Made by a program: the position numbers and the translations under genes. Positions 10,959 to 64,000 of a stretch of 64,000 nucleotides of DNA are shown piece after piece. Numbering within the stretch: the stretch's first letter is position 1; every line of letters starts with the position of its first letter. The notes beneath the pieces were generated by a model. It made no database searches and was not told the DNA's origin. It was given only the letters and a program-made list of their open reading frames with translations. The DNA lies in contig JBHICG010000002.1 of NCBI GenBank assembly GCA_046759445.1, positions 1-64,000 of the forward strand, in the 5' to 3' direction. The DNA comes from Candidatus Scalinduaceae bacterium (GTDB lineage Bacteria; Planctomycetota; Brocadiia; Brocadiales; Scalinduaceae).

Positions 10959-10996
10959 AGCATACAAATAATAAGAACAGCGACCCTTAAAAAAGG
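10955..10996 (+). repeat. Module-boundary motif, copy D
   Basis: 34/42 ungapped identity by manual alignment to the reverse complement of 56074-56115. Confidence 0.7.
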
Positions 10997-11335
10997 GGGA
11001 GTACGGAATATGTTTGATCTGCAATCAGGCCTGTCTTTTAAAAAGGGATAATTTGATAGAATTAAGGTAAAAAAAACTGGTAATTTTACAAAATAGCATT
11101 GTGAAGTGTTTGACTTATAAAAGTACCACCAAGCAAAAAACATCCCCTTTCCCCATATCCCGAAATATTTCCCCAAGTAACTTAGGAGTCTTAAAGGCTG
11201 GTTTCCTCTTGATTTTGATAATTAGTTGATTATCATAAACCTCAGAATTTGCACAGTCTAAAAAAGTCTTGCTTAGTTTCTTAAACAAGACTCATTACCA
11301 TACCTGAATAGAAAGGTAAATAATACATAAAAATT

Positions 11336-40349: not shown

Positions 40350-41849
40350 ATGTATATAAGATTTTTATATTCGTCACAATGTAAGATATTTTGTGTTATT
40401 TTTCTGCTTGTATTCAGTCATAGAGTATTTGCAGGAGATGAAGTTGAAAAGCTAAGACGAGAAATCTTAGAACTGGAAAAGATTGCAAACCCATTTATAC
40501 AGATTTTCCAAAAAGTTTCAAGTTTGGTTGAGCCTTCAGTTGTAAGTATCATAGCAGAAGGTGAACCTGGAACTTCTATGAATCCGCACGATAAGTTGCC
40601 TTCTCCCTTTTCTCTCCCCGAGGAGAATGGGAAGAAAAAACCTAAATCTCATAGGCCAAGCTTTGGTTCAGGAATTATAATAAAAAAGACAGGGTATATT
40701 CTTACTAACTTTCATGTTATAGCTGGTTTTGAAAATGGAAGGATAACCGTAACACTACATAATGGGGATAAATATGATGCTGCAGTCATAGGCAAGGATC
40801 CAAATACAGACTTGGCTATTTTAAAGATAGCCGGCAATAGCCTCAGAGAAGTTACTTTTGGAGACCCAAAGAGCGTAAAGGTTGGAGATTGGGTTATTGC
40901 TATTGGTAATCCTTTTGGATATAGACAAGCCGTTTCAGCAGGCATAATAAGTGCTATAGGGAGAACACATATCACACCATTTCCCAAACCTTTTGCGTAT
41001 GAAAATTTTATTCAGACTGACGCAGCAATAAACCCGGGTAATAGTGGCGGTCCGCTTGTAAATCTACGCGGCCAAGTCATCGGTATTAATTCTGCTATTG
41101 CAACACGAACAGGAGGGTTCCAGGGGGTTGGTTTTGCAATCTCTGCGGAAATAGCAAATGAAGTCATCGATGATCTTATCGAAAAAGGAAGAGTAGTAAG
41201 GGGATATTTAGGTGTCGGAATTCAAGATATCAATGATGGACTTGCCTCGTACCTGAATCTAAAAGATAAAAGTGGTGTATTAAGGCAGTTTAGATTAGAT
41301 TCCGATAAGGGAGCCTTCATATCAGAAGTGTGGCAAAATACTCCTGCATCAAGGGGAGGGATTCATCCTGGAGATGTCATTATTGAGTTTGATGGAAAAA
41401 AGATTCTCAATGCTGATGATCTTCAGAAGGCTATAAGGAATTCGGCCGTTTATAGTAAAGTTAAAGTAAAAGTTATACGTAATAAAAAGAAAGAATTACT
41501 GGTAGTCAAAATAGACCAACAGCCAGGGAACATGTCAGGCAAAACGTTCATAACCGTAAAGGAACCCGAACATACAAGCTTTAGCATGGGTTTAAGTGTT
41601 GAAACCCTGACGTCAGAAAAAGCAGAGGCAATGGGTTGTCAAAAAGGAAGAGGAGTACTTGTAAAACACGTTAAGATAGATAGTCCTGCAGAAAGGGTAG
41701 GCATAATGCCTGGTGACTTAATTTTAAAGGTTGGCTCAAAGGATGTTAATTCAACTGATGAATTCCATTCAGTATTAAGAGGATTTATAGAAAAAGGGTT
41801 GTCTGTTTCTATATTTATTAGATCGAAGGGTTTTATTACCTTGAAATAA
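40350..41849 (+). CDS. HtrA/DegP-family serine protease with two PDZ domains
   Basis: LTNFHV, TDLA, QTDAAINPGNSGGPL. Confidence 0.95.
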   Translation: MYIRFLYSSQCKIFCVIFLLVFSHRVFAGDEVEKLRREILELEKIANPFIQIFQKVSSLVEPSVVSIIAEGEPGTSMNPHDKLPSPFSLPEENGKKKPKSHRPSFGSGIIIKKTGYILTNFHVIAGFENGRITVTLHNGDKYDAAVIGKDPNTDLAILKIAGNSLREVTFGDPKSVKVGDWVIAIGNPFGYRQAVSAGIISAIGRTHITPFPKPFAYENFIQTDAAINPGNSGGPLVNLRGQVIGINSAIATRTGGFQGVGFAISAEIANEVIDDLIEKGRVVRGYLGVGIQDINDGLASYLNLKDKSGVLRQFRLDSDKGAFISEVWQNTPASRGGIHPGDVIIEFDGKKILNADDLQKAIRNSAVYSKVKVKVIRNKKKELLVVKIDQQPGNMSGKTFITVKEPEHTSFSMGLSVETLTSEKAEAMGCQKGRGVLVKHVKIDSPAERVGIMPGDLILKVGSKDVNSTDEFHSVLRGFIEKGLSVSIFIRSKGFITLK

Positions 41850-49144: not shown

Positions 49145-50155
49145 ATGATAATATTGGGCATCGAAACGTCCTGTGACGAAACATCCGCAGCCGTGGTGGA
49201 AGATGGCGTAAAAGTCCTTTCAAATATAGTAGCCTCACAACAAAAACTTCATTCAAGGTTTGGCGGTGTAGTTCCTGAAATAGCATGTCGTGCACATACC
49301 GAAACAATCATATCAGTTATTGACAGCGCTATTATAGAAGCAGATATTAATATTAATGATATAAATGCAATCTCGGTGGCAAACACACCGGGTCTTATCG
49401 GCGCATTATTAATAGGTCTTACCACTGCTAAAATGTTGAGCTGGATATTAAAGATTCCACTCATAACTACCAATCATTTACACGCACATATTTATGCGAG
49501 TAAAATCGAACACAAGGATATTGAATACCCGGCCATAAGCCTTGTCGTATCGGGGGGTCATACAACCTTATTTCTAACGCATAGCGAAACAAAACATACA
49601 CCCGTTGGCGGAACTATAGATGATGCTGCGGGAGAAGCCTTTGATAAGGTTGGCAAAATTTTAGGTTTAGGCTACCCCGCCGGGCCGGAAATTGATAGTA
49701 TTTCCAGAAACGGTAACGAACAGGCAATATCATTCCCACGTTCGTACATGGGAAAGGAATCTCTCGATTTTAGTTTTAGCGGTATTAAGACTGCGGTCTT
49801 ATATCATTGTCTGGGGCAGGATACAAAGCTTGACAGGGCAAAGCCGAAATTAAAAGACCAGGAGATTGCAGACCTTGCAGCAAGTTTTCAGGAAGCGGTT
49901 GTTGACGTTCTGGTAGATAAAACCATTTACGCCGCAACTAAATTTTCTGCTAAAGTAATAGTCCTCGGTGGTGGTGTCGCTTCCAACTCAAGACTTAGAC
50001 AAAAACTTGGAAAAGCGGCAAAGAACCAAGAAATACCACTGTATTATCCTTCAAAAATATTGTGTATGGATAACGCTGCGATGGTAGCAGGGCTGGCATA
50101 CCACAAATATCAAGAAAAAGATTTTGCAGAACTTAATGTTGAGGCAATACCTTAG
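49145..50155 (+). CDS. tsaD: tRNA N6-threonylcarbamoyladenosine synthesis protein TsaD
   Basis: LGIETSCDET, GGVVPEIA, NHLHAH, VSGGHT, DDAAGEAFDK, DNAAM. Confidence 0.97.
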   Translation: MIILGIETSCDETSAAVVEDGVKVLSNIVASQQKLHSRFGGVVPEIACRAHTETIISVIDSAIIEADININDINAISVANTPGLIGALLIGLTTAKMLSWILKIPLITTNHLHAHIYASKIEHKDIEYPAISLVVSGGHTTLFLTHSETKHTPVGGTIDDAAGEAFDKVGKILGLGYPAGPEIDSISRNGNEQAISFPRSYMGKESLDFSFSGIKTAVLYHCLGQDTKLDRAKPKLKDQEIADLAASFQEAVVDVLVDKTIYAATKFSAKVIVLGGGVASNSRLRQKLGKAAKNQEIPLYYPSKILCMDNAAMVAGLAYHKYQEKDFAELNVEAIP

Positions 50156-50157
50156 TT

Positions 50158-50907
50158 ATGGATAGCAACTCTATCAAGAATCTTTTGGAAAAGGTAAAAA
50201 AAGGCGAGCTTACGATAGAAAAGGCATTACGTTTCTTTAAAGATTTTCCATACAAAGACCTGGAATTTGCCAAGGTTGACATCCACCGAACTATTCGCTG
50301 CGGGTTTCCTGAGGTGATTTTCTGCGGCGGTAAGACGCCTTCTCAAGTCTTTAATATTGCCGACCAAATCGTTAAAAACGGAGCAGATTTGCTGGCAACT
50401 CGTGCTAATAAAGAGATTTATGAGTATATTTCTCAGAAATATAAGACTGCGCGATATAATGACATTGCCAAAACAATAGTCATTCGAAAATCACGCCATA
50501 AGAAAAAGAAGGGTCTAGTCTTAATTATAACTGCTGGGACTTCAGACATTCCTGTAGCTGAAGAAGCAAAAGAGACAGCGGAAATAATGGGAAACAACGT
50601 AAAGGTACTTTATGATGTCGGAGTTGCTGGCATTCATCGCCTGCTTAAAAACAAAAAAGATATTTCAACTGCCAGGGTGATTATTGTTGTTGCTGGTATG
50701 GAAGGAGCGCTTGCCAGTGTGGTTGGTGGAATGGTTGATCGCCCCGTCATTGGCGTACCAACAAGTGTTGGATACGGTACAAGTTTTGGTGGAGTTGCTC
50801 CGCTATTGGCAATGCTGAATAGCTGTGCCGCTAACGTTACCGTCGTTAATATTGACAATGGTTTTGGAGCAGCTTATGTTGCGTCACTGATAAATAGTAC
50901 CAAATAG
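50158..50907 (+). CDS. larB: LarB-like (PurE-related) carboxylase
   Basis: FAKVD.HR..R.GFPEVIF, AGTSDIPVAEEA, DVGVAGIHRL, AGMEGAL, VNIDNGFGAA. Confidence 0.9.
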   Translation: MDSNSIKNLLEKVKKGELTIEKALRFFKDFPYKDLEFAKVDIHRTIRCGFPEVIFCGGKTPSQVFNIADQIVKNGADLLATRANKEIYEYISQKYKTARYNDIAKTIVIRKSRHKKKKGLVLIITAGTSDIPVAEEAKETAEIMGNNVKVLYDVGVAGIHRLLKNKKDISTARVIIVVAGMEGALASVVGGMVDRPVIGVPTSVGYGTSFGGVAPLLAMLNSCAANVTVVNIDNGFGAAYVASLINSTK

Positions 50908-51042
50908 TGAGCGATTTACATAGATTTTCGATCAACCCATCAGATGTTAGCTGTGCAAAAATTACGCATTATATACTTCAAAACTTATTGATTCTATGGT
51001 ATAAAACATTAACTAGATTAAAAAATATTGAGTGAGTTCATA

Positions 51043-51477
51043 ATGATGGAAAAGATAAGAAATGATAAAATTTTAATACATAGATTATTGTCAGAAGCGC
51101 GTAAGGTTATAAAGTTTTCTTACTCACCATATTCAAATTTTCGTGTAGGTGCAGCAGTCTTAGATGAAAATGGCAAGATTTACACTGGTTGTAATATTGA
51201 GAATGCATCTTATGGGTTGGCAATCTGTGCAGAAAGGGTTGCTGTATTTAATGCTGTATCCCAAGGAGTTGAGAGAATAAAGGCAATTGCTATATATTGT
51301 GATAAACAGGATTTTTGCTCACCATGCGGTGCATGTAGACAGGTTATTTATGAATTCTCTAAGGATGCAATAGTTATTTTGGGAACTAAGGGAACTGAAT
51401 ATACTATAAAGACAATTGCTGAATTGTTGCCTTTGGGGTTTTGTCCCAAAGATTTAAGGCATCAAAATTTAGATTAA
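51043..51477 (+). CDS. cdd: Cytidine deaminase (homotetrameric type)
   Basis: YSPYSNFRVGAA, GCNIENASY, CAERVA, PCGACRQ, ELLP; ATG 51043/51046 preferred. Confidence 0.93.
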   Translation: MMEKIRNDKILIHRLLSEARKVIKFSYSPYSNFRVGAAVLDENGKIYTGCNIENASYGLAICAERVAVFNAVSQGVERIKAIAIYCDKQDFCSPCGACRQVIYEFSKDAIVILGTKGTEYTIKTIAELLPLGFCPKDLRHQNLD

Positions 51478-51482
51478 AGTCT

Positions 51483-52268
51483 ATGGGAAAGGGTACAAAT
51501 AGAAGGAAGGTGCCAGAGGGATTTGGGGAGGAATTCTGGAAAGGATTTTGGCAAACAATTCAAAGTGTTTTAGAGATAATTAAAATTCTCCCCCTATGGC
51601 AACGTTTACTTGGAATACTTGCTGTTTTTGTCTTCATTATTGTTATTGTTTCTATAATAGCAATCGGTGATAGTACTGTTGTTATAGTCGGTCTTATTAT
51701 TTTTGGTCTCCTTATTTTGGTTTTAGGAGTTGCCAGTTATTTTCCAATTATTAGATTTAAAGCAGTTAAGAAGGAAATGACTAAGTTACCTAAAAACACA
51801 ATTTCTGAGCTCTTAAAAGGTATTACTATAAATGTATCAAGAATATTGAACATCCCAAATGAAAAACTTAGATCCAATATATTTATGCTTGATGAAAATG
51901 ATTATTTAAAAATTCCTAATGGACTCCATTATAACATCGGAACTCCTGTTGAACTTTCAATAAAAATTCCACCAGGGTACGGTAGCACAGGGAATGCATT
52001 TCTCAACAAAGAGCCAACTATTGCAATTCTCAAAGAAGACTGGGGCAAGTATATTCTTGATGATGTGGAAATGCAAAAAGTGGATAAGAACTTAGTGTGG
52101 ATTGTCTCAATGCCAATCCCCTCATCAGGGACTCTTGGTGAGATAATTGGAGTGTTGAATGTAGATTGTCTTAATCTAAAAAAGGGAAGGACTGATCTTG
52201 AAAGAATAGTTGATGACATGTGGTACTGGGTAAACTTAATATCACCCTTATTATTAAGAAAGGAGTAA
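51483..52268 (+). CDS. Two-TM membrane protein with C-terminal GAF-like domain
   Basis: Two long hydrophobic helices, then LRSNIF..IPPGYGSTGNAF..WIVSMPI..IIGVLNVDC (GAF-like strand pattern). Confidence 0.72.
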   Translation: MGKGTNRRKVPEGFGEEFWKGFWQTIQSVLEIIKILPLWQRLLGILAVFVFIIVIVSIIAIGDSTVVIVGLIIFGLLILVLGVASYFPIIRFKAVKKEMTKLPKNTISELLKGITINVSRILNIPNEKLRSNIFMLDENDYLKIPNGLHYNIGTPVELSIKIPPGYGSTGNAFLNKEPTIAILKEDWGKYILDDVEMQKVDKNLVWIVSMPIPSSGTLGEIIGVLNVDCLNLKKGRTDLERIVDDMWYWVNLISPLLLRKE

Positions 52269-52270
52269 CT

Positions 52271-52468
52271 ATGAAGTTGAAGGAAAAAACTCAATCAGAA
52301 CACTCTATAATTTACGTACCAGAGCATTTTGGGAGCAAGTCAATATCGGGGCCGAGCAGTGCTTTCATGGAAACGGTTAAGGAGATAAAAGCCTTAAATT
52401 TTGTTGGAAAATCTACTGATGAATTTATAAATGTATGCAAGCTCAATATTCGCAAAAGCCCGTCTTAG
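52271..52468 (+). CDS. 65-aa hypothetical protein (or frameshifted N-terminus of the next gene)
   Basis: AGGAG RBS 5 nt before ATG 52271; overlaps the next ORF by 34 nt. Confidence 0.5.
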   Translation: MKLKEKTQSEHSIIYVPEHFGSKSISGPSSAFMETVKEIKALNFVGKSTDEFINVCKLNIRKSPS

Positions 52469-52992
52469 GAATTGATATAGATAACGTTATTTCACAAACT
52501 GATACCACAATAAGGAAACTCATACAGCGTCGATATGGTATATCTCTTATGCAAGCTCATATCATACATTTTGATTATCACAAATGTGGAGTAAATAAGG
52601 AACAAGAGAAAGAGATATTTTCTTTATTTAATACCTCTGAATGCGAAAAATTAAAAGTCATCCCAGGTGCTGCAAGAGCCTTATCTATTCTTAGCAACAC
52701 TTATACGGTCATATTAGTAACGAGTAGGAATCCTTCTATAAAACAAAAGACCGAAGAATGGCTGCATACAAAAGGAATCCATTATGACGAACTTATCTTT
52801 AATGATAGAAAGCATGATATAGATGTCAATTTCGACTACTTTATAGAGGATTGTTGGGAATATTCGATAAAGCTGGCTGAAAAAGGCATAAAAGTTATCT
52901 TATACGACTATCCTTGGAACAGAAACAAAGGAACCTCCCCTAATATTTTAAGATTTAAAAATTGGAATGAAATCCTAATTTTTTTAACATAG
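52435..52992 (+). CDS. HAD-superfamily 5'(3')-deoxyribonucleotidase (NT5C-like)
   Basis: LGIDIDNVI (DxD), IPGA, LVTSR, TEEWL, K, FIEDC, PWN. Confidence 0.88.
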   Translation: MQAQYSQKPVLGIDIDNVISQTDTTIRKLIQRRYGISLMQAHIIHFDYHKCGVNKEQEKEIFSLFNTSECEKLKVIPGAARALSILSNTYTVILVTSRNPSIKQKTEEWLHTKGIHYDELIFNDRKHDIDVNFDYFIEDCWEYSIKLAEKGIKVILYDYPWNRNKGTSPNILRFKNWNEILIFLT

Positions 52993-53333
52993 GTACTATT
53001 TCTACGTTGTCCTAACTGTCTTCAAGCCCTGGGGAAAAATGGACAAATCCTATTTTTTTTAACAAATGATTCAAATGCTAAATATTTAAGCATTGCAAAG
53101 ATCGCAGTTACAGTGTTGGTATACCATATTACCCAAAAGAGGATAATAACGATATAAGAAAACATTTATTGTGTCTCTTCCTATAAATTTGATTTAAATC
53201 TATTACAACCCTCATTTCGTTGTATACTTATTTCTTTACAATCCCAATACTACTTACGCCTTGCTTTTTCAGTTTTTTCTTTGTACATTCAAGCACTTTA
53301 ATTAAGGTTATAGAATTTACGTAACGTTAAATA

Positions 53334-54230
53334 ATGTATAAAGTAAAAGACCTACCTAAACTTATTTCCAGAAAAAAAAATTCACACAAAGGAAATTATG
53401 GTCGCGTATTGGTTCTCGCTGGTTCTCCTGGCATGACGGGTGCTGCGTACCTTTGCTCGAAAGCCGCATTGAGGAGCGGTTCAGGTTTGGTTACGTTGGG
53501 TATACCTGAAAGCCTGAATCTCGTAATGGAAACCAAACTGACATGCGTGATGACATATCCACTACCAGAAACGAAGGTGCTCACATTATCTAATAAGGGT
53601 CGAGAAGAAATCCTGGAGCTATGTAATAAACACGATGTTGTAGCATTAGGTCCCGGTCTTTCACAACAAGCAGAGACAAAAAAGCTAGTCCACTGGTTAA
53701 TAAAAACAATAGACCGCACCATTGTGATTGATGCTGATGGGATTAATGCGCTTGTCGGTAATATTAATATATTGTACAAGATAAAAAGAAACGTCATAAT
53801 CACACCACATCCCGGAGAGATGTCACGTTTATTAGACCTTGGTTCGGCAAAGGATGTACAAAAAAAAAGACTTAGCATTGCAACAGAGTTTGTTCAATCA
53901 ATGCATAAAAGATTAGGAAAAGAAAAGGGCATAACCTTAGTCTTAAAAGGGGATAAGACAATAGTTGCAGATTACGAAAAGATATACATAAATCAAACAG
54001 GTAATCCCGGAATGGCAACTGCTGGCACTGGGGACGTCCTTACGGGAATTATCGTATCCCTGATCGGTCAGGGGTTAAGTGAATTTAATGCCTCCCAGCT
54101 TGGCGTGTACGTCCATGGTCTTGCAGGTGATATAGCATCGAAGGAAAAAGGAGAGACATCAATGATTGCTTCTGATATTCTAGACTCTTTACCTGCTGCA
54201 TTTTTAAGATACGAAAAGAGGTGTAGGTAA
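53334..54230 (+). CDS. nnrD: ADP-dependent NAD(P)HX dehydratase
   Basis: SHKGNYG, GPGL, DADG, TPHPGEM, GNPGMATAGTGDVL. Confidence 0.93.
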   Translation: MYKVKDLPKLISRKKNSHKGNYGRVLVLAGSPGMTGAAYLCSKAALRSGSGLVTLGIPESLNLVMETKLTCVMTYPLPETKVLTLSNKGREEILELCNKHDVVALGPGLSQQAETKKLVHWLIKTIDRTIVIDADGINALVGNINILYKIKRNVIITPHPGEMSRLLDLGSAKDVQKKRLSIATEFVQSMHKRLGKEKGITLVLKGDKTIVADYEKIYINQTGNPGMATAGTGDVLTGIIVSLIGQGLSEFNASQLGVYVHGLAGDIASKEKGETSMIASDILDSLPAAFLRYEKRCR

Positions 54231-54616: not shown

Positions 54617-54829
54617 AATATTTAACCACAGAGAACACCGAGAGCACAGAGATACTTTATTGAAAGGATTAACAGGATTCAGACTGGACATTTGCGGACA
54701 GAGACCGCATCACCTCCCAATAGACGACCTTTGTTTAATACTAAAACTCCCTTGCCAAAACCTATGGCTGATTGAAACTCTACCGTCCACAAACCATCAT
54801 ACATTTTTATTTCCTCCATTTTACAGATT

Positions 54830-55663
54830 TCAATTTTCCAGTTTATTAACAAATCTCTTAATCACTTCAAAATATTCCTCACCACCCACTATATAAGTAT
54901 CGTTATGCGTGGCGCCAGGAATTGTATAGAATTCCTTTGGTTCATTGGCTGCCTCGTATAAAGTCTTTCCCTGTTCGATTGGTACAAGTTCATCTCTGTC
55001 TCCATGAAGGATAAGGACAGGTACTTTTACGTCCCTTATCTTCGTAATACAATCATATTTTGCCTGTAGGATATAGCCTACTGGTATGTAAGGAAAAAGG
55101 GTCCTTGCAAGTTCTTTCATAGACGTAAAAGGAGTTTCAAGAATCAGACCACAGCATTTTTCCTTTATGGCAAGATCAACGGCTACTGCGCTACCGAGGG
55201 AGCGGCCAAAAAACACAATCTTTTCATGATCTACGTCCCTTCTCGAAAGTAGATACTCAAGGGCTGCATTAGCATCAGTATATGTTCCCTGTTCAGATAC
55301 CTTGCCCTCACTCTTACCATACTGCCGATAATCAAAGATAAAGATATTTAAGGGCACTCTGTCGTATAGCATCTTTATGTTTTCGAGTCTATGGCTTATG
55401 TTTCCTGCATTGCCGTGAAACCACAGGAGTGTATGCAGATTGTTAGCAGTTAGAATTTCTGTTTTACCCGGGATAAACCATCCGTTAAGCTTCAGTCCAT
55501 CTTCGGTATTGAACGTGACATCATCATATTCAATACCCCAATCATCAGGTGTTGAATATACGTCTTTGTCCGGGTAGAAAATGAATTGATTTTCTATGAA
55601 GTCAGCACAACCCATTATAAATAATGTAGTGAAAACTAAGGATATTACATATTTCTTTACCAT
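54830..55663 (-). CDS. Alpha/beta hydrolase (ABHD13/17-like), probable lipoprotein
   Basis: FHGNAGN, DYRQYGKSEG, GRSLG, HGDRDELVP, HND; lipobox-like IMGC. Confidence 0.9.
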   Translation of the reverse strand: MVKKYVISLVFTTLFIMGCADFIENQFIFYPDKDVYSTPDDWGIEYDDVTFNTEDGLKLNGWFIPGKTEILTANNLHTLLWFHGNAGNISHRLENIKMLYDRVPLNIFIFDYRQYGKSEGKVSEQGTYTDANAALEYLLSRRDVDHEKIVFFGRSLGSAVAVDLAIKEKCCGLILETPFTSMKELARTLFPYIPVGYILQAKYDCITKIRDVKVPVLILHGDRDELVPIEQGKTLYEAANEPKEFYTIPGATHNDTYIVGGEEYFEVIKRFVNKLEN

Positions 55664-55758
55664 TGTAATTAATACAGTTCATGAACTATGTTGTTGATTC
55701 CACATTACTATTCTTTTTCTGTGGATTTTTTAGTGGTGTTTTCATTGATAAGGACAAT

Positions 55759-56022
55759 TTATGTTTCCCTTTGAGTTCCTTGTTTAATATGATATGTAAT
55801 TTTGTTTTTATACATAAAAGGGTCTGTAGAAAAGCATAGATGAACATACTTTATCTTATTTCTATATTTTGGTATTTCTTTGTCCAGAAGCTCTAAAGCA
55901 TTGGAAACAATCTTAGGTTGACACCATTCTTTATTACTCATTATTTTTGTATATGCACTTGCATATTCCTTAATGATCTCTAATTTAATCTCGGACCAGA
56001 TTCCTATTTGGTCAAGTTTCAT
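55759..56022 (-). pseudogene. Chimeric remnant: TcmP-like N-terminus joined to a radical-SAM fragment
   Basis: DQIGIWSEIKLEIIKEYASAYTKIM resembles the three-Cys-motif partner start; NALELLDKEI..VHLCFSTDPFMY resembles an SPL-like radical SAM segment. Confidence 0.55.
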
Positions 56023-56073
56023 TACTATTTTGTTTATAGATTACTTATTTTTATCTTTTAAGCAAGGCTTGAT

Positions 56074-56115
56074 CCTTTTTTAACGGTCGCTGGTATTATT
56101 ATTTTGCAACTCTAA
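56074..56115 (-). repeat. Module-boundary motif, copy A
   Basis: Core TTTTTTAACGGTCGCTG at 56076-56092. Confidence 0.75.
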
Positions 56116-56148
56116 AATGGAATAATTTTCCAATTTCATTTTGATCGT

Positions 56149-57750
56149 CTAAATCATCAAGCTATTGTAATACTTTTTTCTGTATTTCTGAAGAATAAAG
56201 CTATCCTTGCATGCTGAGCAGTTCTTTTGTGGAAGGGGTGAAAATTTTATCCAATGGTTGGGTCTAGAAAAGAGGTCATGATCTATGTAAGTGACATCTC
56301 CCTTTAGCGCTCTATCAGGAAAGATGCGTTCTTTAAGAATTTCTCCTCCAATGAGTATTCCGGGAAGAACCGCTGCAAAAGGTATTGGAACTATCAAAGA
56401 AGCCTGTCCCTCAAAACTCATTTGGCCGCAATGTAAAGATACCCAATCTGTAAAACGTTCTCCTAAAGATGGTAATGGAAATCCTAACCTACATTGGACT
56501 TCTTGCATTTGAGATATATGCCAGTCCTTAAAATATCCGTTATTATTACGCAATGTTTTTACTTCTTCGTATGGGAGTCCTATGAAATTTGCTAAATCTC
56601 TGTCTGGATCCTGCTTATTGTTATTTTGCAAGCAAACATGACAAGCAGTTAGACCCATTTCTACCCTTTTTACATAGAACCCTCTTTCTGCCACACCAGC
56701 ATCAAATATAATTCTAGGAAGGTCCCACTGAATTGCTTGTCGAGTTTCTAGGTTGTCAACGGTTGAAATAAGTAAATCGAAAGAATCGTACTTAGTGATC
56801 TTTGAGAACTCTAAATAAGTCTTTTTATAAGCATCAATTTCAAGGTTCGGAAATTGATCAAATAGTTTTCGTATTAGGTGGACTTTTGGCACTTTTTCCT
56901 TTGCATCTTTTCTGATGGCATATATATAACGATTAAGATTTGACAAGGTCACTTCATCTGGGTCTACCAAAACTACTTTACCTTGTAACTCAGGCAGACA
57001 TACAAGGCAATATAGACAAGCACCCCCTCCAGCGCCAACTCCAACTGTAAATACTTGCCCGAGATCAATAGTTTTAGGTAAAGTAGGGTTATCAGCATTT
57101 AACTTAATTTGTTCGTACGAAAAGAGAGAAAAGTGTATTTCGTCTTCAAGTAAATTCATTCTGGGTAGTTCGCTTGATTTAATACCTAAAGTTGTACCTT
57201 TATATTCTAAGACTCTTTTGAATATTTCGCTTACCGCCCAACAAGCAGTTGCCATAGCTCCTATTGGATTGAAGTTCGATGAAAATTCTCTGTCGTCACT
57301 TTTAGCCACTAGATGTACAAACCAACCGTCAGATGAGATTGAGACCATGTTAGGATGCCTTATACCTGTTTTTCCTATACCTATTAGTACTAATGGCTCA
57401 CAAGATAAAGAAGGCAAAATTCGAAGATTAACCCCGGTGGATATAATAGAAGAAAAATGGGTAACGGCTTCAGTTAGACTAGTATTATTTACTAAAGGGA
57501 TAGGGGTTATAAGTCTAGAATTTCGTTCAAAGATTACATAAATTTCTGTAATAATTGGATGAAGTCGTAATAAAAGGTTAAGAACTGTAAAGAAAGTAAG
57601 TTGACCATTTGGATTAACAGAAGCTTCTTTTCCTAATATTACTATTATAGGCGCAGGCACCTTAGCCCATCTATGAACTTCTTGTGGGGAAGATGGCATG
57701 AGCTGCCTAAGAAGTGTCATCGTCCTTAAGCACTCCTGTTCAGATTTCAT
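56149..57750 (-). CDS. E1-like (ThiF/UBA) ubiquitin-like activating enzyme, BilD-like
   Basis: N-terminal degenerate adenylation-like domain; VGVGAGG, DPDEVTLSNLNRY, STVDN, CHVC and CSAC Zn pairs, candidate catalytic HCG. Confidence 0.88.
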   Translation of the reverse strand: MKSEQECLRTMTLLRQLMPSSPQEVHRWAKVPAPIIVILGKEASVNPNGQLTFFTVLNLLLRLHPIITEIYVIFERNSRLITPIPLVNNTSLTEAVTHFSSIISTGVNLRILPSLSCEPLVLIGIGKTGIRHPNMVSISSDGWFVHLVAKSDDREFSSNFNPIGAMATACWAVSEIFKRVLEYKGTTLGIKSSELPRMNLLEDEIHFSLFSYEQIKLNADNPTLPKTIDLGQVFTVGVGAGGGACLYCLVCLPELQGKVVLVDPDEVTLSNLNRYIYAIRKDAKEKVPKVHLIRKLFDQFPNLEIDAYKKTYLEFSKITKYDSFDLLISTVDNLETRQAIQWDLPRIIFDAGVAERGFYVKRVEMGLTACHVCLQNNNKQDPDRDLANFIGLPYEEVKTLRNNNGYFKDWHISQMQEVQCRLGFPLPSLGERFTDWVSLHCGQMSFEGQASLIVPIPFAAVLPGILIGGEILKERIFPDRALKGDVTYIDHDLFSRPNHWIKFSPLPQKNCSACKDSFILQKYRKKYYNSLMI

Positions 57751-58241
57751 ATTCGAATCTCCAAAGGTAAGATAATGAATCTTTTCTGGATTTCCTTAAC
57801 AGGCAATTTTCTCCACCATAGTTTTCCTTGGTACTCGTAAATATAACAATTCTTTGAAAGTTCCATTCCTGAAAGACAATAGTTCCATACAACTATTGAG
57901 ATGTAGCCAATATGAAAACTCACTGGATGCCTTTCATCACCTGTTGAATGTTCTACCTGGTTTGGGTGACTATGAACTTGCGCTAGTAAGGTTAAACTAT
58001 GCCTTGAAAGCTTAGTTACAAGTCTTATCAAATCGTTTTGCTCGAGAGAAACTCCCTCTCCCCACTCAGAACCCCCAACAAACATAGTGGTTATAATAGA
58101 AGATTCTTGTGCTCTTTTACCAGCCCAAAGTACAAGACCTTCTTTACCGATTTCCCCCTTTAGTTTTAAATACGCTTCTGTGCCAGATATTATCTTATGA
58201 GAGATATAGAATTTATTAGCTATGGCGGTAACTAACTTCAT
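57747..58241 (-). CDS. JAB/MPN+ metallopeptidase, BilC-like
   Basis: EGLVLWAG glutamate, QVHSHP...HSTGD, G.ISIVV. Confidence 0.9.
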   Translation of the reverse strand: MKLVTAIANKFYISHKIISGTEAYLKLKGEIGKEGLVLWAGKRAQESSIITTMFVGGSEWGEGVSLEQNDLIRLVTKLSRHSLTLLAQVHSHPNQVEHSTGDERHPVSFHIGYISIVVWNYCLSGMELSKNCYIYEYQGKLWWRKLPVKEIQKRFIILPLEIRI

Positions 58242-58666
58242 TGATAAGCTTTGTCCATTTCAACTTGAATATCTTCTAATACCTTAGATAATAAATATTT
58301 CTTTACATTCCAAGTATAGTTAGTATGTAGAATCTCATGAAACTCTCTAATGCCTGGAATACACAACTGTGGTGGATTACGCCCCAGCGCAGCCTGAAAG
58401 GCTGATCCTAGTTTTGGCCAGAATTGCTTCCCTTCTTGCCTAGTCTGTGGATCAACAAAAGTAAAAGCAGGAGCTCTTTGTGGGTATCCCTCGTAATATA
58501 AGCGTGCCATAAATTTTAAGGTTGGACTCTTTTTAGGATACATAAGTACATATACATATAACCCCTCTGGTGTTACCTTCCATCCGTGATAAATAAACAG
58601 GTTATTATGCGCTTGGAGACAATCTAATTGTTCTTGAATTTTGTGACTAATAACTTCACTTTCCAT
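58238..58666 (-). CDS. E2-like conjugating protein (CEHH type), BilB-like
   Basis: YPQRAPAFTFVDP (E2 YPxxxP motif) and LCIPGIREFHEILH. Confidence 0.82.
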   Translation of the reverse strand: MESEVISHKIQEQLDCLQAHNNLFIYHGWKVTPEGLYVYVLMYPKKSPTLKFMARLYYEGYPQRAPAFTFVDPQTRQEGKQFWPKLGSAFQAALGRNPPQLCIPGIREFHEILHTNYTWNVKKYLLSKVLEDIQVEMDKAYQ

Positions 58667-58920
58667 TAGATCACCACTGCACCAAGAGGGGTTAGAATAA
58701 GCGTAGCACCGTTTGGCACATTTGATTCGCCGATAGTATCATCCTCAGACAGGGGATTACCATTGAATATTAAACGATAGTTGTCCGCTTGTGACGGATC
58801 GATCCCCAACTTAGCCATAGTAGATACTTTCAAAGCTCGAATAGGTTGGTTCGTATTTACCTCAACTTCTAAAGGCTGTTCTGTTGCCGCAGATTCAATT
58901 GTTAGTATAAGTTTTTCCAT
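58666..58920 (-). CDS. Ubiquitin-like beta-grasp protein, BilA-like
   Basis: LEVEVN.NQPIRALK..YRLIFNGNPLSEDDTIGESNVPNGATLIL parallels ubiquitin [29 protein letters not shown]; GAGG RBS. Confidence 0.88.
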   Translation of the reverse strand: MEKLILTIESAATEQPLEVEVNTNQPIRALKVSTMAKLGIDPSQADNYRLIFNGNPLSEDDTIGESNVPNGATLILTPLGAVVI

Positions 58921-58998
58921 TGCATTTCCTCCTATTTAACTTAAATTAAAAATTTTTAATTTTTCATTAATCACGAGATAGAACTTGAAAATATAGTA

Positions 58999-59096
58999 GT
59001 TAATAAATATTTAACCATAGCTTAACGTACCTGTCAAGGGAAAAATTTACTAATAGTTAATTATTTATTGACCTATCTTTCACAACTCGTTATACT
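58999..59096. promoter_or_regulatory. Divergent promoters with phased operator-like repeats
   Basis: Plus strand TTGACC (59068-59073), 17 bp, TATACT (59091-59096); minus strand TTGACA (59037-59032); TTAA-like tetramers at 11-bp spacing. Confidence 0.6.
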
Positions 59097-59124
59097 TTAT
59101 GCAATTAAGGAGACCTAATAAATA

Positions 59125-59472
59125 ATGGAAGACCAACTTGCCAAACGAATTGGACATCGCATAAAGAGCAAAAGAATTGAACGCAATATAAATCAAAACA
59201 AATTGGCTGAGAAGGTAGGTATAAGTCCCGCAGCAATAAACCAGTTTGAGAAAGGAGAAAAGAAACCATCGTCCGATGTACTCACTAGGATCGCAAAAGA
59301 ATTAAGTGTCTCCACTGACAGTCTTCTTACTGAAAAGGGGGATGAAATTTTCGTAGATGAAGAGGTTAAAATAGCTTTTAGAGCATTCAAAAAGTTGGAA
59401 AAAGGGGATAGAGACATAATCGTAAAGAATATACAATTTCTTAAAGAACAAGCGAAAAGAAAAGGAAAATGA
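59125..59472 (+). CDS. XRE-family HTH repressor, CapH-like
   Basis: QNKLAEKVGISPAAINQFEKGEKKPS HTH; C-terminal AFRAFKKL helix; AAGGAG RBS. Confidence 0.88.
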   Translation: MEDQLAKRIGHRIKSKRIERNINQNKLAEKVGISPAAINQFEKGEKKPSSDVLTRIAKELSVSTDSLLTEKGDEIFVDEEVKIAFRAFKKLEKGDRDIIVKNIQFLKEQAKRKGK

Positions 59473-60248
59473 ACATAGCAAAACTTTACGCAAAAGATCT
59501 TCTCATAGAATTTGAGAACTTATCTTTACCTATAAATCCAAAGAAAATTGCTGAGGCTAAAGGGATTATAATTAAAGAAGATGATCTAGAAGGCTTTAGT
59601 GGTATGTTGCTTAAGGTAGGCAAAAGAACTCTTATTAGCGTTAAAAGAAGCATAAGAGAAAGAGGGAAAAAGAGATTCACACTAGCCCATGAACTAGGGC
59701 ATTATCTTTTGACTAAACACTTAACACCTTCAGATATCTCATTTGAATGTACTGATGAAGACATACATCATTTCGGAGAAAAAGATAATAAAGAGTCAGA
59801 CGTGAATGCATTTGCAGCAGAGTTACTTATGCCAGAAGAATTTTTCAGAGAAAGAATTAGGTTAAGCGATCTTACTTATGAACTGATAGATAGTCTTACA
59901 AAAGATTTTGATACCACACTTACGGCTACTGGTAGAAGATTTGTGGAACTTAGTTCTTCATATGCATTAGTTTGTTCTCAAAATTCTAAAATAAAGTGGT
60001 TCCTTAAGGGAGAAGATTTTCCTTATTATTTGTACTCTTCAGGTACCGTAAGCGAATCTTCGGTTGCCATAGATTTTTACTAGAGAAAAAAATTACCTAC
60101 TTGTTTTGAATTGGTACCTGCAAACGCTTGGATTGATGACAACAGAATAGAGGACATGGAAATCTTGGAAATGGCTATACCACTTCCATACTATAATCAG
60201 GTTTTAAGTTTTTTAAGCATTGATAATTCCAATGAAGATAATGACTAG
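59469..60248 (+). pseudogene. ImmA/IrrE-family metallopeptidase (CapP-like) with in-frame TAG at 60081-60083
   Basis: RFTLAHELGH, E.DVNAFAAELLMP; frame stays open for 54 codons after the TAG (..VPANAWIDD..EMAIPLPYYNQVLSFL..) to TAG 60246-60248. Confidence 0.8.
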
Positions 60249-60309
60249 TAGACCCAAGTCAGACTTCTACTGATAAATTGCCTAAAATCGGCCAATTAAG
60301 CATAATACA

Positions 60310-60326
60310 TTTTTTAACGGTCGTTG
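60310..60326 (-). repeat. Module-boundary motif, copy B
   Basis: TTTTTTAACGGTCGTTG. Confidence 0.7.
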
Positions 60327-60512
60327 TCCCTAGTTTGTATAAACTTATAGAAAGGCTAATAAACCTCTGTTTCACTTGTCTATCGTATGATGGACATGTA
60401 TAATTTGATGAGTTATGGGGTAAGAATGCTACAAAGCAAAAAACTTGACTCGTTATTCCAATGGTGATAAAATCTTTAATACTTTCCTTAAAGTTCACCC
60501 ACTAGACCTATC

Positions 60513-61964
60513 ATGTCTATCCTTAACAAAGCAGAAATAGTAAATATTAAAAATGAAGATGATTGGATGGATGTTTTGTCTTCATGCGAAGGCCATTTAT
60601 CAATAAAAGACTACCCCAAGATATCTGAATATTTATCGAATAATATCAAGACAGTATTTATTGAAAAAGATTATATTGATAAAGATTTTCGAGATACATT
60701 TTATAACTTCTATTCAAAAAAATTCGCAGATTACCCCAACAAGGCTATTAGACTTCACTTTTTTACTACCCTTATTAGCAACGATGACATTTATGATTTA
60801 GACAAGTATCAAAACCATTATGTTGGTTTTATAGTTATAAGGCCTACAAGAATTAACACAATAGGTAGAACTATTTTAGATCCTTCTAAAATATCAAAAG
60901 CAGGCGGATATATTTGCTCTACAGATTATAAAGTCCATATTCTTGGTGCAGAATTAAATGTTAATGGGTTTCCTTACATAAGCCAAGACACAGACGTTAC
61001 TGTTTGTGCTCATGCCGCTTGTTGGATGGTTTTTAGATATTTCAGTGAAAGATATCCAACTTATGCAGAGATTTTACCGTTTAAGATTTCCCAATTAACA
61101 GAAAACCTTTCTTATGGCAGACTTGTTCCATCAAAGGGGTTATACCTTTCTCAAGTTGCAGAAATATTTTCAAAGTTCGGATTTTATCCTGAAATTTATA
61201 TTAAAGCTCAGTATCAAGATAATTTTGACAGGCTACTTTATTACTATATTGAATCGGGTTTGCCAGTAGTTGCTGGACTTAGCAGACATAATCATGCAAT
61301 AACAATCTTGGGCCATCTTTCTAATTATGAAAGATCTGTTTCAAATAACAGTGTAGAATATGTTGATGGTCTTATAATTAATGATAATAATCATCTCCCT
61401 TACCAAAAACTTTTAAGAAGTAATCTTAAAAAAGAAGGTTACTGTTCAAAGTATCACTTTGAAGATATAGATAGCTTTATCGTTCCCCTGTATGAAAAAA
61501 TTTACTTTTCTGCCGAATATGTTGATGCTATGGCGGAAGCTTTGTTAGATGACACACATTTTGGTATTAACGCTTTGTCTCAGCTTGTAAAGAAAAACAA
61601 CATTATAAAAAGAATATTTCTTACATCTTCTAAGTCCTATAAAATACAAAGAAGAAAACAAAATTTACCTTTTAATCTGTCATCGACATACTGTGGAATG
61701 AATATGCCAAAGTTTATTTGGGTATGTGAATTATCCACCTCAGAATTTTACTCAAAAGGTGAAATTATAGGTGAAATTATTTTTGATGCTACAGCAAACC
61801 ATATTGATACATTCTGTTTTTTGGTTATACATTACCCAGACTTTATAGTATTTAATGATAGAAATTATTTGACTTATAATCCAGAAAGGTTTATAAAGGG
61901 CACACTTAAAACAAAAGATTTGCTATCATATCAATTATATAAAAATAATCTAAAGGAGATATGA
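60513..61964 (+). CDS. Papain-fold (C39-like) cysteine protease domain protein
   Basis: PYISQDTDVTVCAHAACW (Gln..Cys), ESGLPVV, HAITILGH (His), IINDNN. Confidence 0.7.
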   Translation: MSILNKAEIVNIKNEDDWMDVLSSCEGHLSIKDYPKISEYLSNNIKTVFIEKDYIDKDFRDTFYNFYSKKFADYPNKAIRLHFFTTLISNDDIYDLDKYQNHYVGFIVIRPTRINTIGRTILDPSKISKAGGYICSTDYKVHILGAELNVNGFPYISQDTDVTVCAHAACWMVFRYFSERYPTYAEILPFKISQLTENLSYGRLVPSKGLYLSQVAEIFSKFGFYPEIYIKAQYQDNFDRLLYYYIESGLPVVAGLSRHNHAITILGHLSNYERSVSNNSVEYVDGLIINDNNHLPYQKLLRSNLKKEGYCSKYHFEDIDSFIVPLYEKIYFSAEYVDAMAEALLDDTHFGINALSQLVKKNNIIKRIFLTSSKSYKIQRRKQNLPFNLSSTYCGMNMPKFIWVCELSTSEFYSKGEIIGEIIFDATANHIDTFCFLVIHYPDFIVFNDRNYLTYNPERFIKGTLKTKDLLSYQLYKNNLKEI

Positions 61965-61965
61965 T

Positions 61966-62139
61966 ATGTCAATTATGAAATTTCCACCAATGGAAGAAAA
62001 AAAAGGATTTTTAGATACTAATGAAAAGGTTCATGAGGCTTGGTGTTCTTTAGAAAAAGCAACGGAGAAAGATTATAAGAAATACGATGAAGCGAAAAGG
62101 GCTGTACAAGAAATATCCCAAACTAAACTTTTAGACTAA
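61966..62139 (+). CDS. 57-aa hypothetical helical protein
   Basis: Not in the ORF track; AAGGAG RBS, starts 1 nt after the upstream stop; MSIMKFPPMEEKKGF...ISQTKLLD. Confidence 0.7.
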   Translation: MSIMKFPPMEEKKGFLDTNEKVHEAWCSLEKATEKDYKKYDEAKRAVQEISQTKLLD

Positions 62140-62256
62140 GATTAAAACGAAGAAATTATTTCCCATAAAATAACAGTTCGGTCTTACATTTAAATTAATC
62201 AACTCACTTCTCAAAGATTTCAATTGCTTGGTTTATGCTTATATCCCATCGTAAGA

Positions 62257-62272
62257 TTTTTAACGGTCGCTG
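62257..62272 (-). repeat. Module-boundary motif, copy C
   Basis: TTTTTAACGGTCGCTG followed by TTGTATATGCTC. Confidence 0.75.
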
Positions 62273-62329
62273 TTGTATATGCTCAGTAATTAAGTAACTC
62301 TTTTGGTATAATAAATCAAAAACATTTTT

Positions 62330-62525
62330 CTAAGACAGAATCATCCTTTCAACTTTGGTTTTTGCTGTTTTAATAATTTTTTTTGCTTCTTCTTGTAACT
62401 TTTCTGCATTTTGCATTCATTCATTAACTTCATCTACGATTTTTTGCTGAATATTTAGAGATGGGATTGGGATCTTGGTGGTATTCAATAATTCAACATT
62501 TACCCCTGACTGATTATTCCAATTT
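62330..62525 (-). pseudogene. Restriction-modification specificity subunit (HsdS-like) C-terminal remnant
   Basis: NQSGVNVELLNTTKIPIPSLNIQQKIVDEVNE*MQNAEKLQEEAKKII..KVERMIL with internal TGA at 62417-62419. Confidence 0.7.
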
Positions 62526-62866
62526 GTACATATAGTAAAAAATATCTTATGTTTTTGATATATATTTAGAATTATTGTTAAGTATTCTGGGCAAAATAGG
62601 GCCAATAAGAGAAAGGAAATAAATTACGTTTTTATTGCATAACATTTTACTTAAGCTAACTGTAAATTAGTCATACCTTTCAATATTTTATCTCCTTCCA
62701 TTCTACATTTCTTTACTGCAGTTAGGGTTCATTCTTCCAGCAATGTTTTTGTCTAAAATAATTTCTCTATCCAAGTTCTGTAAGTTCTTCAATTACTTTT
62801 AAGTCTGTATCTGTGGCTTCGTTAATATTTGGCATATTAATACACACTCATCTTTTTTGTTGAGGC

Positions 62867-63032
62867 TTACTTTTCTATGATATCTTCTGTGGTTGTGAAA
62901 ATAGCTCCAGCATCTTTCATTTCATTCAGTGCTTCTTCTACCCTCTTCGTTAACAGCCTTAATCGCATCTGTAACCAGTGAAACTTTGTACCCACGTCTT
63001 AGCAGTTCAAGGATGGCCACCTTAACACAAAA
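62867..63032 (-). pseudogene. Nicotinamidase/isochorismatase C-terminal remnant with frameshift
   Basis: FCVKVAILELLRRGYKVSLVTDAIKAV then a shift to EEALNEMKDAGAIFTTTEDII. Confidence 0.65.
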
Positions 63033-63130
63033 TTAATTAAGGAACCTAATTATATCCTTGCTGTCTTTTGTATGATAAATAATTATTACAATCGGTAAAT
63101 TATTTTTCGCTTCCACCTGAATAACCCTTT

Positions 63131-63346
63131 TTAATAGTTCTTGTTGTGACATTTATCGAGACGCTTCAAGAGCATTTTTTTGAATTCTTTTTCTGAAAGA
63201 TTCGGAAATCTCTTACGTAATCCATGAATAAAAAGTTTATTTGCAAATTCGGACAACTCAAATGCCTTAAGCAACCTCCTTTCAGGTGACATTTTACGAA
63301 GCACTTGAATGTATATCTTATGATTTGGACGTTCTTTAATATTCAT
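63131..63346 (-). CDS. Small hypothetical protein (type often found beside nucleotidyltransferase genes)
   Basis: LRKMSPERRL..AFELSE..GLRKRFPNLSE.E. Confidence 0.6.
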   Translation of the reverse strand: MNIKERPNHKIYIQVLRKMSPERRLLKAFELSEFANKLFIHGLRKRFPNLSEKEFKKMLLKRLDKCHNKNY

Positions 63347-63425
63347 ATTTGATAAAGTTCTTTTAAGGCTTCTTTTTCTCTTTCTTCACTAACAACTTTA
63401 ACTGTTCCACAATATTTTATCACTT

Positions 63426-63806
63426 CTATAACTGTTTTTTTAACCATTTTAGAACCTCTTTGCCTTTTTCAAATATTACCTTTGTTTTCTCTTTATCATA
63501 GTCTTTTAGCATCTTCTGGAGGTCGTCTGGATAATATGGGAAGATTCTCATCTTATTCAGGGCAGAAATAGTATCAGAAAATTCTTCAGGAAGCTTTAAG
63601 TGAACTTTTTCAATGAGATACGGTAGATTGTTTGTGTTTAAGGGTATTGCGTTGAATTTCTTCTGATAAAGCCCTTTAAGGGCTTTTTCAATGGAAAGAT
63701 GGCACAGAAATACGGCATAAAAATACCTTTCGGCCTTAAGCATATACTCGGCAGTATCCATATCGTAATCAGCCTGACTCAGCCATTCTTCAGGTTTTTT
63801 TGCCAT
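63426..63806 (-). CDS. HEPN domain protein
   Basis: EWLSQADYDMDTA..YAVFLCHLSIEKALKG..YPD; AGGAG RBS. Confidence 0.88.
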   Translation of the reverse strand: MAKKPEEWLSQADYDMDTAEYMLKAERYFYAVFLCHLSIEKALKGLYQKKFNAIPLNTNNLPYLIEKVHLKLPEEFSDTISALNKMRIFPYYPDDLQKMLKDYDKEKTKVIFEKGKEVLKWLKKQL

Positions 63807-64000
63807 ACTTACTCCTATCCCTTAGATTATGTGTATGTATATTTGCAAATCTTTTTTACAGTATCGCTCTACCGAAAAAGCGATTTTATAAAAAGCCCCG
63901 TTTATATAAGATTGTAATATACTTGTTTCGATTTGTAAACGCAGAGTTTTTGAGATGAGATTGCGAATAGATATGGCTATCTGGGATAATCTCTAAGACC

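Follow-up and report, generated by a model that had tools for sequence, protein, structure and literature searches.

The window analyzed here is a stretch of 64,000 nucleotides from a Candidatus Scalinduaceae bacterium (positions 1 to 64,000 of contig JBHICG010000002.1, GenBank assembly GCA_046759445.1), and our subject is a 16-mer, TTTTTAACGGTCGYTG, that recurs between the gene modules of a defence island in it. The island contains a Bil-like operon on the reverse strand (56149..58920), encoding ubiquitin-like, CEHH, JAB (BilC-like) and ThiF-type E1 (BilD-like) proteins, for which PADLOC returned BilD with an E-value of 1e-18 and BilC with one of 9e-14. On the forward strand lie the genes for a CapH-like helix-turn-helix (HTH) regulator and a CapP-like M78 peptidase (59125..60083; PADLOC capH 3e-17, capP 4.5e-50), and a pair of hypothetical genes of 483 and 57 amino acids (60513..62139), neither of which matched a Pfam, NCBIfam or PADLOC family. 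Reverse-strand remnants stand on both sides: the N-terminal part of a TcmP-like gene (55759..56022; TIGR04474, E 0.002) to the left, and a fragment of HsdS, the type I specificity subunit (62417..62605), with the C-terminal part of a nicotinamidase/isochorismatase-like gene (62850..63030) to the right. A preliminary description of this stretch had named the ubiquitin-like operon, its regulators, the 57-aa gene and the TcmP and HsdS remnants, all of which we found again; its label of 'protease' for the 483-aa open reading frame (ORF) is supported by no more than one weak Peptidase_C39_2 lead. It had further read the copies of the 16-mer as scars of an unrecognised mechanism that stacks defence cassettes in tandem, with the enzyme acting in trans.

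Three direct, same-orientation, intergenic copies are indeed present. The 16-mer matches exactly at 56077-56092 (copy A), 60311-60326 (copy B; Y = T) and 62257-62272 (copy C), all on the forward strand, the first two starting one base later than had been given, and a fourth copy that had been overlooked lies at 10978-10993 on the reverse strand with one mismatch (copy D). In 100 dinucleotide shuffles of the window the 16-mer occurred 0.08 times on average (maximum 1), and no shuffle held four.

Copy A (56076..56115, +) is a T-run followed by AACGGTCGCTG, with the decayed tail GTATTA instead of TCCCTA, and scores 15.4 bits with a position weight matrix (PWM) of the repeat; it lies beyond the 3' terminus of the E1 gene, at a distance of 57 nt, and the TcmP remnant starts 55 nt from it. 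Copy B (60310..60336, +), between the capP-like gene and the 483-aa gene, is a full-length unit, TTTTTTAACGGTCGTTGTCCCTAGTTT, with a single C>T difference from the family consensus (PWM 33.4 bits). Copy C (62257..62273, +), between the 57-aa ORF and the HsdS fragment, ends after GCTGT, where a second mobile element starts. Its motif and about 45 nt upstream (from 62212) are 87% identical to a copy in a genome of another genus, whose counterpart keeps an intact GTCCCTA tail (contig C119 of genome G014). Copy D (10972..11005, −) has the decayed tail TTCTTA and lies 23 nt downstream of a gene for a metallo-beta-lactamase fold; homology to relatives stops about 28 nt before it. Copies A and D resemble each other across about 46 nt that include the repeat and its downstream flank (some 38 aligned identities, about 20 nt beyond the repeat).

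The motif is the only sequence common to A, B and C, which are no more like each other than they are like copies on other contigs. The weaker flank similarity claimed earlier could not be reproduced, as the identity between the upstream flanks of A, B and C (18-24 of 60 positions) is that of the background. Since the tails differ and the flanks are unrelated, an origin of the three by target-site duplication was ruled out, and we regard them as independent family members and not as one duplicated site. All three are singlets in 'right-end' orientation: B is complete, the tail of A has decayed, and the other mobile element truncates C.

The repeat family and its transposase units

The 16-mer is the inner part of a repeat of about 22-28 bp, a W-run followed by AAC(G/A)G(T/G)CGCTG(T/A)CCCTA, that is dispersed over the host genome (G000; 3.62 Mb in 145 contigs, 37% G+C; C-numbers below denote its contigs, and other G-numbers denote other genomes). 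Genome-wide, TTTTTAACGGTCGYTG has eight exact copies on five contigs and 17 matches at up to 2 mismatches, compared with 10 for the reversed control; for the 17-mer core, at up to 3 mismatches, the counts are 43 and 4 for the reversed pattern. The PWM scan of genome and relatives that the preliminary description had proposed revealed the dispersed family: with a threshold of 14 bits, 60 matches were counted, compared with 7 in the reversed genome, and with one of 18 bits the counts were 50 and 2. Just one of these 50 strong matches falls within an ORF of at least 100 aa. The genome holds about 50-60 copies, nearly all of them extragenic; they stand beside housekeeping genes (aminotransferase, RpiB, NAPRTase, beta-eliminating lyase) and also beside restriction, toxin-antitoxin and helicase genes. 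Many lie close to contig ends, where a repeat that breaks assemblies is expected. Many genomes of the same bacterial family hold it well above the control; it was counted 49 times in G005 (control 2), 24 times in G015 (control 2), 13 times in G001 (control 0) and 12 times in G014 (control 0), and in most genomes of other families its count is at control level. Sub-types of the repeat include AATAGGCGCTGTCCCTATT, TTTTTAACGGTCGCTGTCCCTA and AATAGGCGCTGTCCCTA.

An all-against-all comparison of the loci revealed homologous units of about 740 bp that carry the repeat in inverted orientation at their two ends, and whose similarity stops exactly at ...CCCTA. Two have both ends present, C19:40941-41682 (repeat copies at 40957(−) and 41666(+); ORF 40961-41596, with an interrupted N-terminus) and C86:70-808 (86(−) and 792(+); ORF 119-793). 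Two more have one end, the other lying past the end of the contig, on C16 (ORF 53130-53804) and on C61, together with C50 (ORF C61:21049-21609). A transposase unit on contig C181 of G014 is likewise flanked by inverted copies of the repeat, so that copies beside a transposase, which the preliminary description had suggested looking for, do occur. A single ORF of about 223 aa in each unit matches Pfam Y1_Tnp (E 1e-13 to 7e-16; 50.9-58.9 bits against 23). NCBIfam NF047646, 'REP-associated tyrosine transposase' (RAYT; REP, repetitive extragenic palindromic), is matched over model positions 3-146 of 146 with 76.9 and 78.8 bits (E ~1e-22; cut-off 80), and the model transpos_IS200 scores 18.9 bits against a cut-off of 55. 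The translations show an H-x-H motif and a downstream tyrosine (..RYVENNPVRAG..), which we take to be the catalytic motifs of the transposase. A phmmer search of the transposase against PDB gave no meaningful match. No target-site duplication is evident at the four units. Separately, the genome encodes about ten distant Y1-transposase-like paralogues of some 320-330 aa with a long C-terminal extension (for example C16:38747-39733, C60:4899-5885, C58:4875-5834, C46:24820-25797 and C2:115129-116121), none of which is flanked by the repeat.

The repeat also bounds units that lack a gene. On C55, a non-coding unit of about 300 bp with inverted repeat ends occurs twice, as pairs of copies spaced by 263 bp (1742/2005 and 21641/21904). 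Inverted doublets of about 67 bp (TAGGGACAGCGACCGTTT, some 30 nt, AAATAGTCGCTGTCCCTA) were found at four places in three relatives (G014:C19, two on G021:C297, and G015:C13), and C123 of the host genome carries one as well, whose inverted half at 1199 was scored by the PWM and of which both halves are seen in the sequence. A 'GCATAAT' box upstream of several copies, including B, is the spacer of these inverted doublets; the box 'GGCATAAT' had been considered as a start-codon context, and this idea was dropped once the box was recognized as doublet spacer. Initial guesses that the repeat represents Tn7-like or Mu-like ends or a sigma-54 promoter were likewise dropped after the transposase-bounded units had been seen. 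One version of the repeat, at C125:2640-2670, forms a perfect palindrome with a 9-bp stem (TAATAGGCGC-T-GCGCCTATTA) and resembles the long palindromic singlets that, in PMC3337134, are proposed to be leftovers of REPIN excision.

At 14 of 46 copies, compared with 64 of 3000 random positions, the end of the repeat and its locus-specific flank are tandemly duplicated with periods of 7-30 nt (for example C25:32157-32230, C16:851-895, C50:147-200, C19:40900-40957, C49:21084-21130 and C117:1253-1300). This junction stutter might mark the cut site of the transposase. Among the neighbours of the repeat are two PLD-nuclease + SNF2-helicase genes (C6:36503-38290 and C14:40128-43352), each adjoining a copy in DNA that same-genus genomes lack.

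Surroundings of the copies and borders of the island

The sequence that cuts copy C is one end of the second mobile element (62274..62321, +; TGTATATGCTCAGTAATTAAGTAAC...TGGTATAAT). This 48-nt sequence, which includes a TGGTATAAT box, recurs in several genera at about 98% conservation and is related to a miniature element of about 125 bp with TGTATATGCTCAG inverted ends. Copies and miniature relatives lie at C6:88263, C8:66414, C28:129, C29:14938, C31:30826, C65:17835 and C2:78032, and in five of eight cases a copy of the second element directly adjoins half of the first repeat, as if it had entered the repeat at its centre, possibly with a 5-bp duplication. Assembly contigs break at the element, with loose ends that correspond to other copies. 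A 126-aa ORF follows the 48-nt sequence on C6; membership of the IS481 family was considered and rejected, as the ORF has no Pfam match and just leads from Atlas (HTH_28/23/32 and rve integrase N-termini). ISPpu9 of Pseudomonas putida, an insertion sequence (IS) that is reported in PMC8450116 to target REP sequences, is a parallel for an element that sits at halves of another repeat; a candidate gene of our element is the 126-aa ORF with HTH leads that follows one copy. Several repeat families together make up the mosaic gaps around the first repeat; another multi-copy repeat (60-100 nt), with many matches in G001, G002, G005 and G014, lies some 200 nt from copy D, at ~11202-11305 of the window.

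In relatives of genus g2, the hydrolase gene that corresponds to 54830-55663 of the window is followed directly by an intact nicotinamidase gene. As a remnant of the latter stands at 62850-63030, the island spans about 55.68-62.85 kb or more, and copies A and C lie about 400 nt inside its left border and about 590 nt inside its right border. Genomes of the same genus carry different genes after the hydrolase, and no repeat copy there. An intact nicotinamidase and Nudix gene pair was found on C63:12105-13305 of the host genome; together with the fragment in the island it indicates that the locus has been rearranged and was not simply interrupted by an insertion. Just upstream of the island lies another strain-specific insertion, a 2.4-kb segment with a G+C content of 0.33 (50900-53330) that holds no repeat copy; G002 and G006 have the flanking genes but not the segment between them.

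The strain-specific island of about 7 kb has just six non-coding gaps of at least ~95 nt, and three of them hold a copy of the repeat. With so few gaps, a repeat that is confined to non-coding DNA must fall between modules. The DNA of the block from A to C has a G+C content of 0.31-0.36, compared with 0.38-0.39 in the core, and gave no match in 131 other genomes of the class, in plasmids or in phages; nor was the block found in viral contigs. No relative of the Bil-like E1 was found in the 27 other genomes of the family, in metagenome contigs or in viral contigs. Its absence from the family genomes and the lower G+C of the block indicate that the block was acquired.

Modules and motif were also followed to other loci. 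The 483-aa gene recurs at 12 loci in distant phyla (43-81% amino acid identity), with the 57-aa gene adjoining in six, and at none of the 12 is there a match to the motif at up to 2 mismatches. Matches with three mismatches in L046, L047 and L091 were treated as chance. In one genome the gene pair directly follows a CRISPR array, and in L046 a perfect palindrome, AAGGTCAGCGACCTT, which is a three-mismatch motif match, lies 100 nt after the 57-aa gene. Eleven sites in relatives correspond to five junctions of the host genome, and none of the 11 holds a repeat-like sequence of 8 bits or more. Neither result supports the earlier view that the modules are tied to the motif.

Nature of the repeat and role of the copies in the island

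We are highly confident that this motif constitutes the terminal repeat of RAYT-like Y1/HUH transposase elements that form one family, and is thereby a mobile repeat of a known kind; the elements are best described as RAYT-like, with terminal inverted repeats and an accompanying family of solo repeats. REP/REPIN-RAYT systems, reportedly set out by Bertels and Rainey in 2011 (PMC3116915) as 'REPtrons', share with it a dispersed extragenic repeat, inverted copies flanking a Y1/HUH transposase gene of the IS200-like kind, non-coding doublets, many singlets, and a repeat family that is common to related genomes in very different copy numbers. PMC3337134 describes REPINs as inverted REP doublets and singlets as their decaying remnants. 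In PMC3733652 (Di Nocera et al., 2013), 'REPtrons/TIRtrons' are RAYT-like genes flanked by REPs or by terminal inverted repeats (TIRs) that form moderately abundant families. The definition of a TIRtron (TIRYT) given there, a tyrosine-transposase gene with inverted repeats of about 20 bp that lack GTAG and a moderately abundant solo family, describes our units too, the comparison being one of architecture alone. The units further resemble IS200/IS605 elements in their Y1 HUH transposase, their length of about 740 bp, their several copies per genome and the lack of an evident target-site duplication. IS200/IS605 elements have subterminal hairpins on the same strand and no terminal inverted repeats, whereas the units here carry terminal inverted repeats of about 20 bp, and their transposase scores 18.9 bits with the IS200 model compared with 77-79 bits with the RAYT model. 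The repeat thus belongs to a REP/RAYT-type family whose 50-60 mostly intergenic copies also stand beside housekeeping genes, which leaves no need for an unrecognised mechanism. The earlier reading of the copies as recombination or insertion scars served by an enzyme in trans holds in so far as they are mobile-element sequence and RAYT-like Y1 genes lie on C16, C19, C61 and C86; the stacking of cassettes that it entailed is not supported.

As for the role of the window copies, they are probably passive singlets whose position reflects an extragenic constraint together with a preference of the family for accessory DNA. The Y1 transposase would have spread copies in trans via single-stranded DNA, as in REPIN/RAYT and IS200/IS605 systems, and the singlets would be inert remnants. 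In an island whose operons are closely packed, repeats could land and persist in little non-coding DNA other than the inter-module gaps, and it is for this reason that the copies seem to delimit modules. The family would accumulate in accessory DNA generally, and the gain or loss of modules would not need copies of the repeat.

Several observations weigh against these conclusions. Some concern the class of the repeat. The unit has little palindromic character, and the sub-type found in the window has none: folding of 52 copies as single-stranded DNA gave a mean free energy (dG) of −1.7 kcal/mol (z −0.4 relative to shuffles), with a 6-bp stem formed by the AATAGGCGCTGTCCCTATT sub-type only. The GTAG tag of REP sequences is not conserved, as the other strand reads GTAG in one of the 52 copies and only TAG is constant (after ...CCCTA comes T in 31 copies, A and G in 10 each, and C in 1). 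At least four diverged copies of the transposase gene exist: tblastn found four that are full-length or nearly so (C19, C16, C86, and C61 with C50; 82-100% amino acid identity) as well as fragments on C8 (two) and C77, whereas classical RAYTs are single-copy according to PMC5581495. The number of repeats, about 50-60, is modest as well. Others concern the passive placement of the copies. The exact 16-mer sub-type is clustered, three of its seven independent genomic sites lying within 6.2 kb, as in 118 of 400,000 random placements (p ~3e-4); with the 47 independent sites of the family as a whole, a single cluster of this kind would be unremarkable (231 of 2000 random placements), though three were observed. 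Copies A, B and C share one orientation, for which the chance is 1 in 4. At all nine loci that were compared with same-genus genomes, which were chosen on longer contigs and not at random, the repeat is found within host-specific DNA or at its margin, at six of them within 600 nt of the end of homology; two of the nine have clean empty sites in relatives. These relatives share only about 76-86% DNA identity, so 'specific' here includes DNA that has diverged beyond detection. The family is thus strongly associated with strain-specific DNA, but the borders of the window island, as seen against relatives, do not coincide with the copies.

The most specific observations of this kind come from metagenome runs of the same study. 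In two of them, X3 and X4, pieces at a depth of 3-6x are 93-99% identical to 56087-62260, and nothing at 90% identity or more covers the core flanks 50000-54200 and 54670-55600. The limits of homology fall inside copy A (56087) and inside copy C (62260). One contig fits 61947-62260 and continues with about 200 nt unlike the window, and another starts 10 unaligned letters before 56087, so that the left limit is a contig start. These data are assembly contigs, which cannot prove absence, and uncovered parts were used only alongside the covered block. As judged from these contigs, a different organism appears to carry the A-to-C block in a different genomic setting, and homology stops within A and C. 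This is what a repeat-bounded mobile block would look like, and it favours the block as a whole and not B as a border. A joint in run X3 from 55931 to 62270 was rejected as an excision product: it is on a contig of about 30x from another, more abundant organism, has 30 letters on one side, and falls in the multi-copy element after C.

It is on such grounds (the ends of homology in X3 and X4, the sub-type clustering, the common orientation, the nine loci and the acquired character of the block) that the same RAYT-type copies could be functional seams, at which accessory blocks integrate or between which they excise, by short-homology recombination or with a Y1 enzyme acting in trans, and with at least the 6.2-kb A-to-C block as such a unit. 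Direct copies of IS26 that separate resistance modules offer an analogy. We consider this role fairly unlikely. An X3/X4 piece, 60060-60807, crosses copy B with the arrangement unchanged (60324 reads the consensus C), and so leaves the two modules unseparated in the only variant seen; copy B as a module border is thereby contradicted. Contigs of two putative source runs cross A, B and C and show no alternative joint of the kind expected of excision, with the proviso that contigs drop rare variants. The left limit in X3/X4 is a mere contig start, and a right limit 13 nt before copy C ends is not what a simple crossover in the repeat predicts. None of the 11 matching sites in relatives holds a potential target copy, the tails of A, B and C differ, homologues of the modules occur elsewhere without the motif, and the duplications at the junctions suggest that it is the outer end (...CCCTA), not the interior of the 16-mer, that is active. 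The block itself was not found in the 131 class genomes, plasmids, phages and viral contigs that were searched. A stronger form of the idea, that RAYT-type repeats are joints for moving and stacking defence blocks and that the A-to-C block was recently exchanged within the habitat by Y1 in trans or by short-homology recombination, seems to us decidedly improbable.

It is very improbable that the motif is a regulatory site common to defence operons, such as an operator, promoter element or terminator. Copy B does precede the 483-aa gene, whose strand it shares, by 187 nt and has promoter-like hexamers nearby, and the element after C carries a TGGTATAAT box; however, both genes beside copy A are on the other strand, and no forward-strand gene lies downstream of copy C. 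Promoter-like and terminator-like sites are about as numerous in the region as in shuffles (33 compared with 30.9, and 4 compared with 3.1), and none covers the 16-mer of A or C; at B there are two weak sites, one on the forward strand (60278-60306) that ends just before it and one on the reverse strand (60330-60302) that overlaps it. There is no hairpin, other copies flank the transposase and unrelated housekeeping genes, and no Rfam family is involved, the sole match over 55000-64000 at E up to 1 being a chance one to a flavivirus hairpin (61800-61832). That the sites are attC-like and form an integron-type cassette array, which the direct copies of a short site between gene modules bring to mind, is almost certainly wrong. 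Imperfect-palindrome structure is lacking, and the preliminary description was right that the sites are not attC-like hairpins, as the window copies fold with a dG of 0 to −0.8 kcal/mol, no better than shuffles. It was right, too, about the missing integrase: the tyrosine recombinase family PF00589 is absent from the contig of the window, and its seven matches in the genome are on other contigs. Moreover, what would be the 'cassettes' are operons of several genes that bring their own regulators, and copies of the motif are scattered across many contigs and flank Y1 genes.

The eye-catching pattern of direct copies between defence modules thus has an ordinary cause, namely REP/RAYT-type repeats in the gaps of a defence island, and it calls for caution, as direct short repeats between defence operons need not be recombination sites. 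What is new is a RAYT-like family with barely palindromic terminal inverted repeats, several gene copies and frequent stutter duplications at its junctions. If genomes do share the A-to-C block and repeats bound it, a part in the building of defence islands would be indicated for REP-like repeats; and if the copies did serve as joints, REP-like repeats would be an assembly system for such islands.

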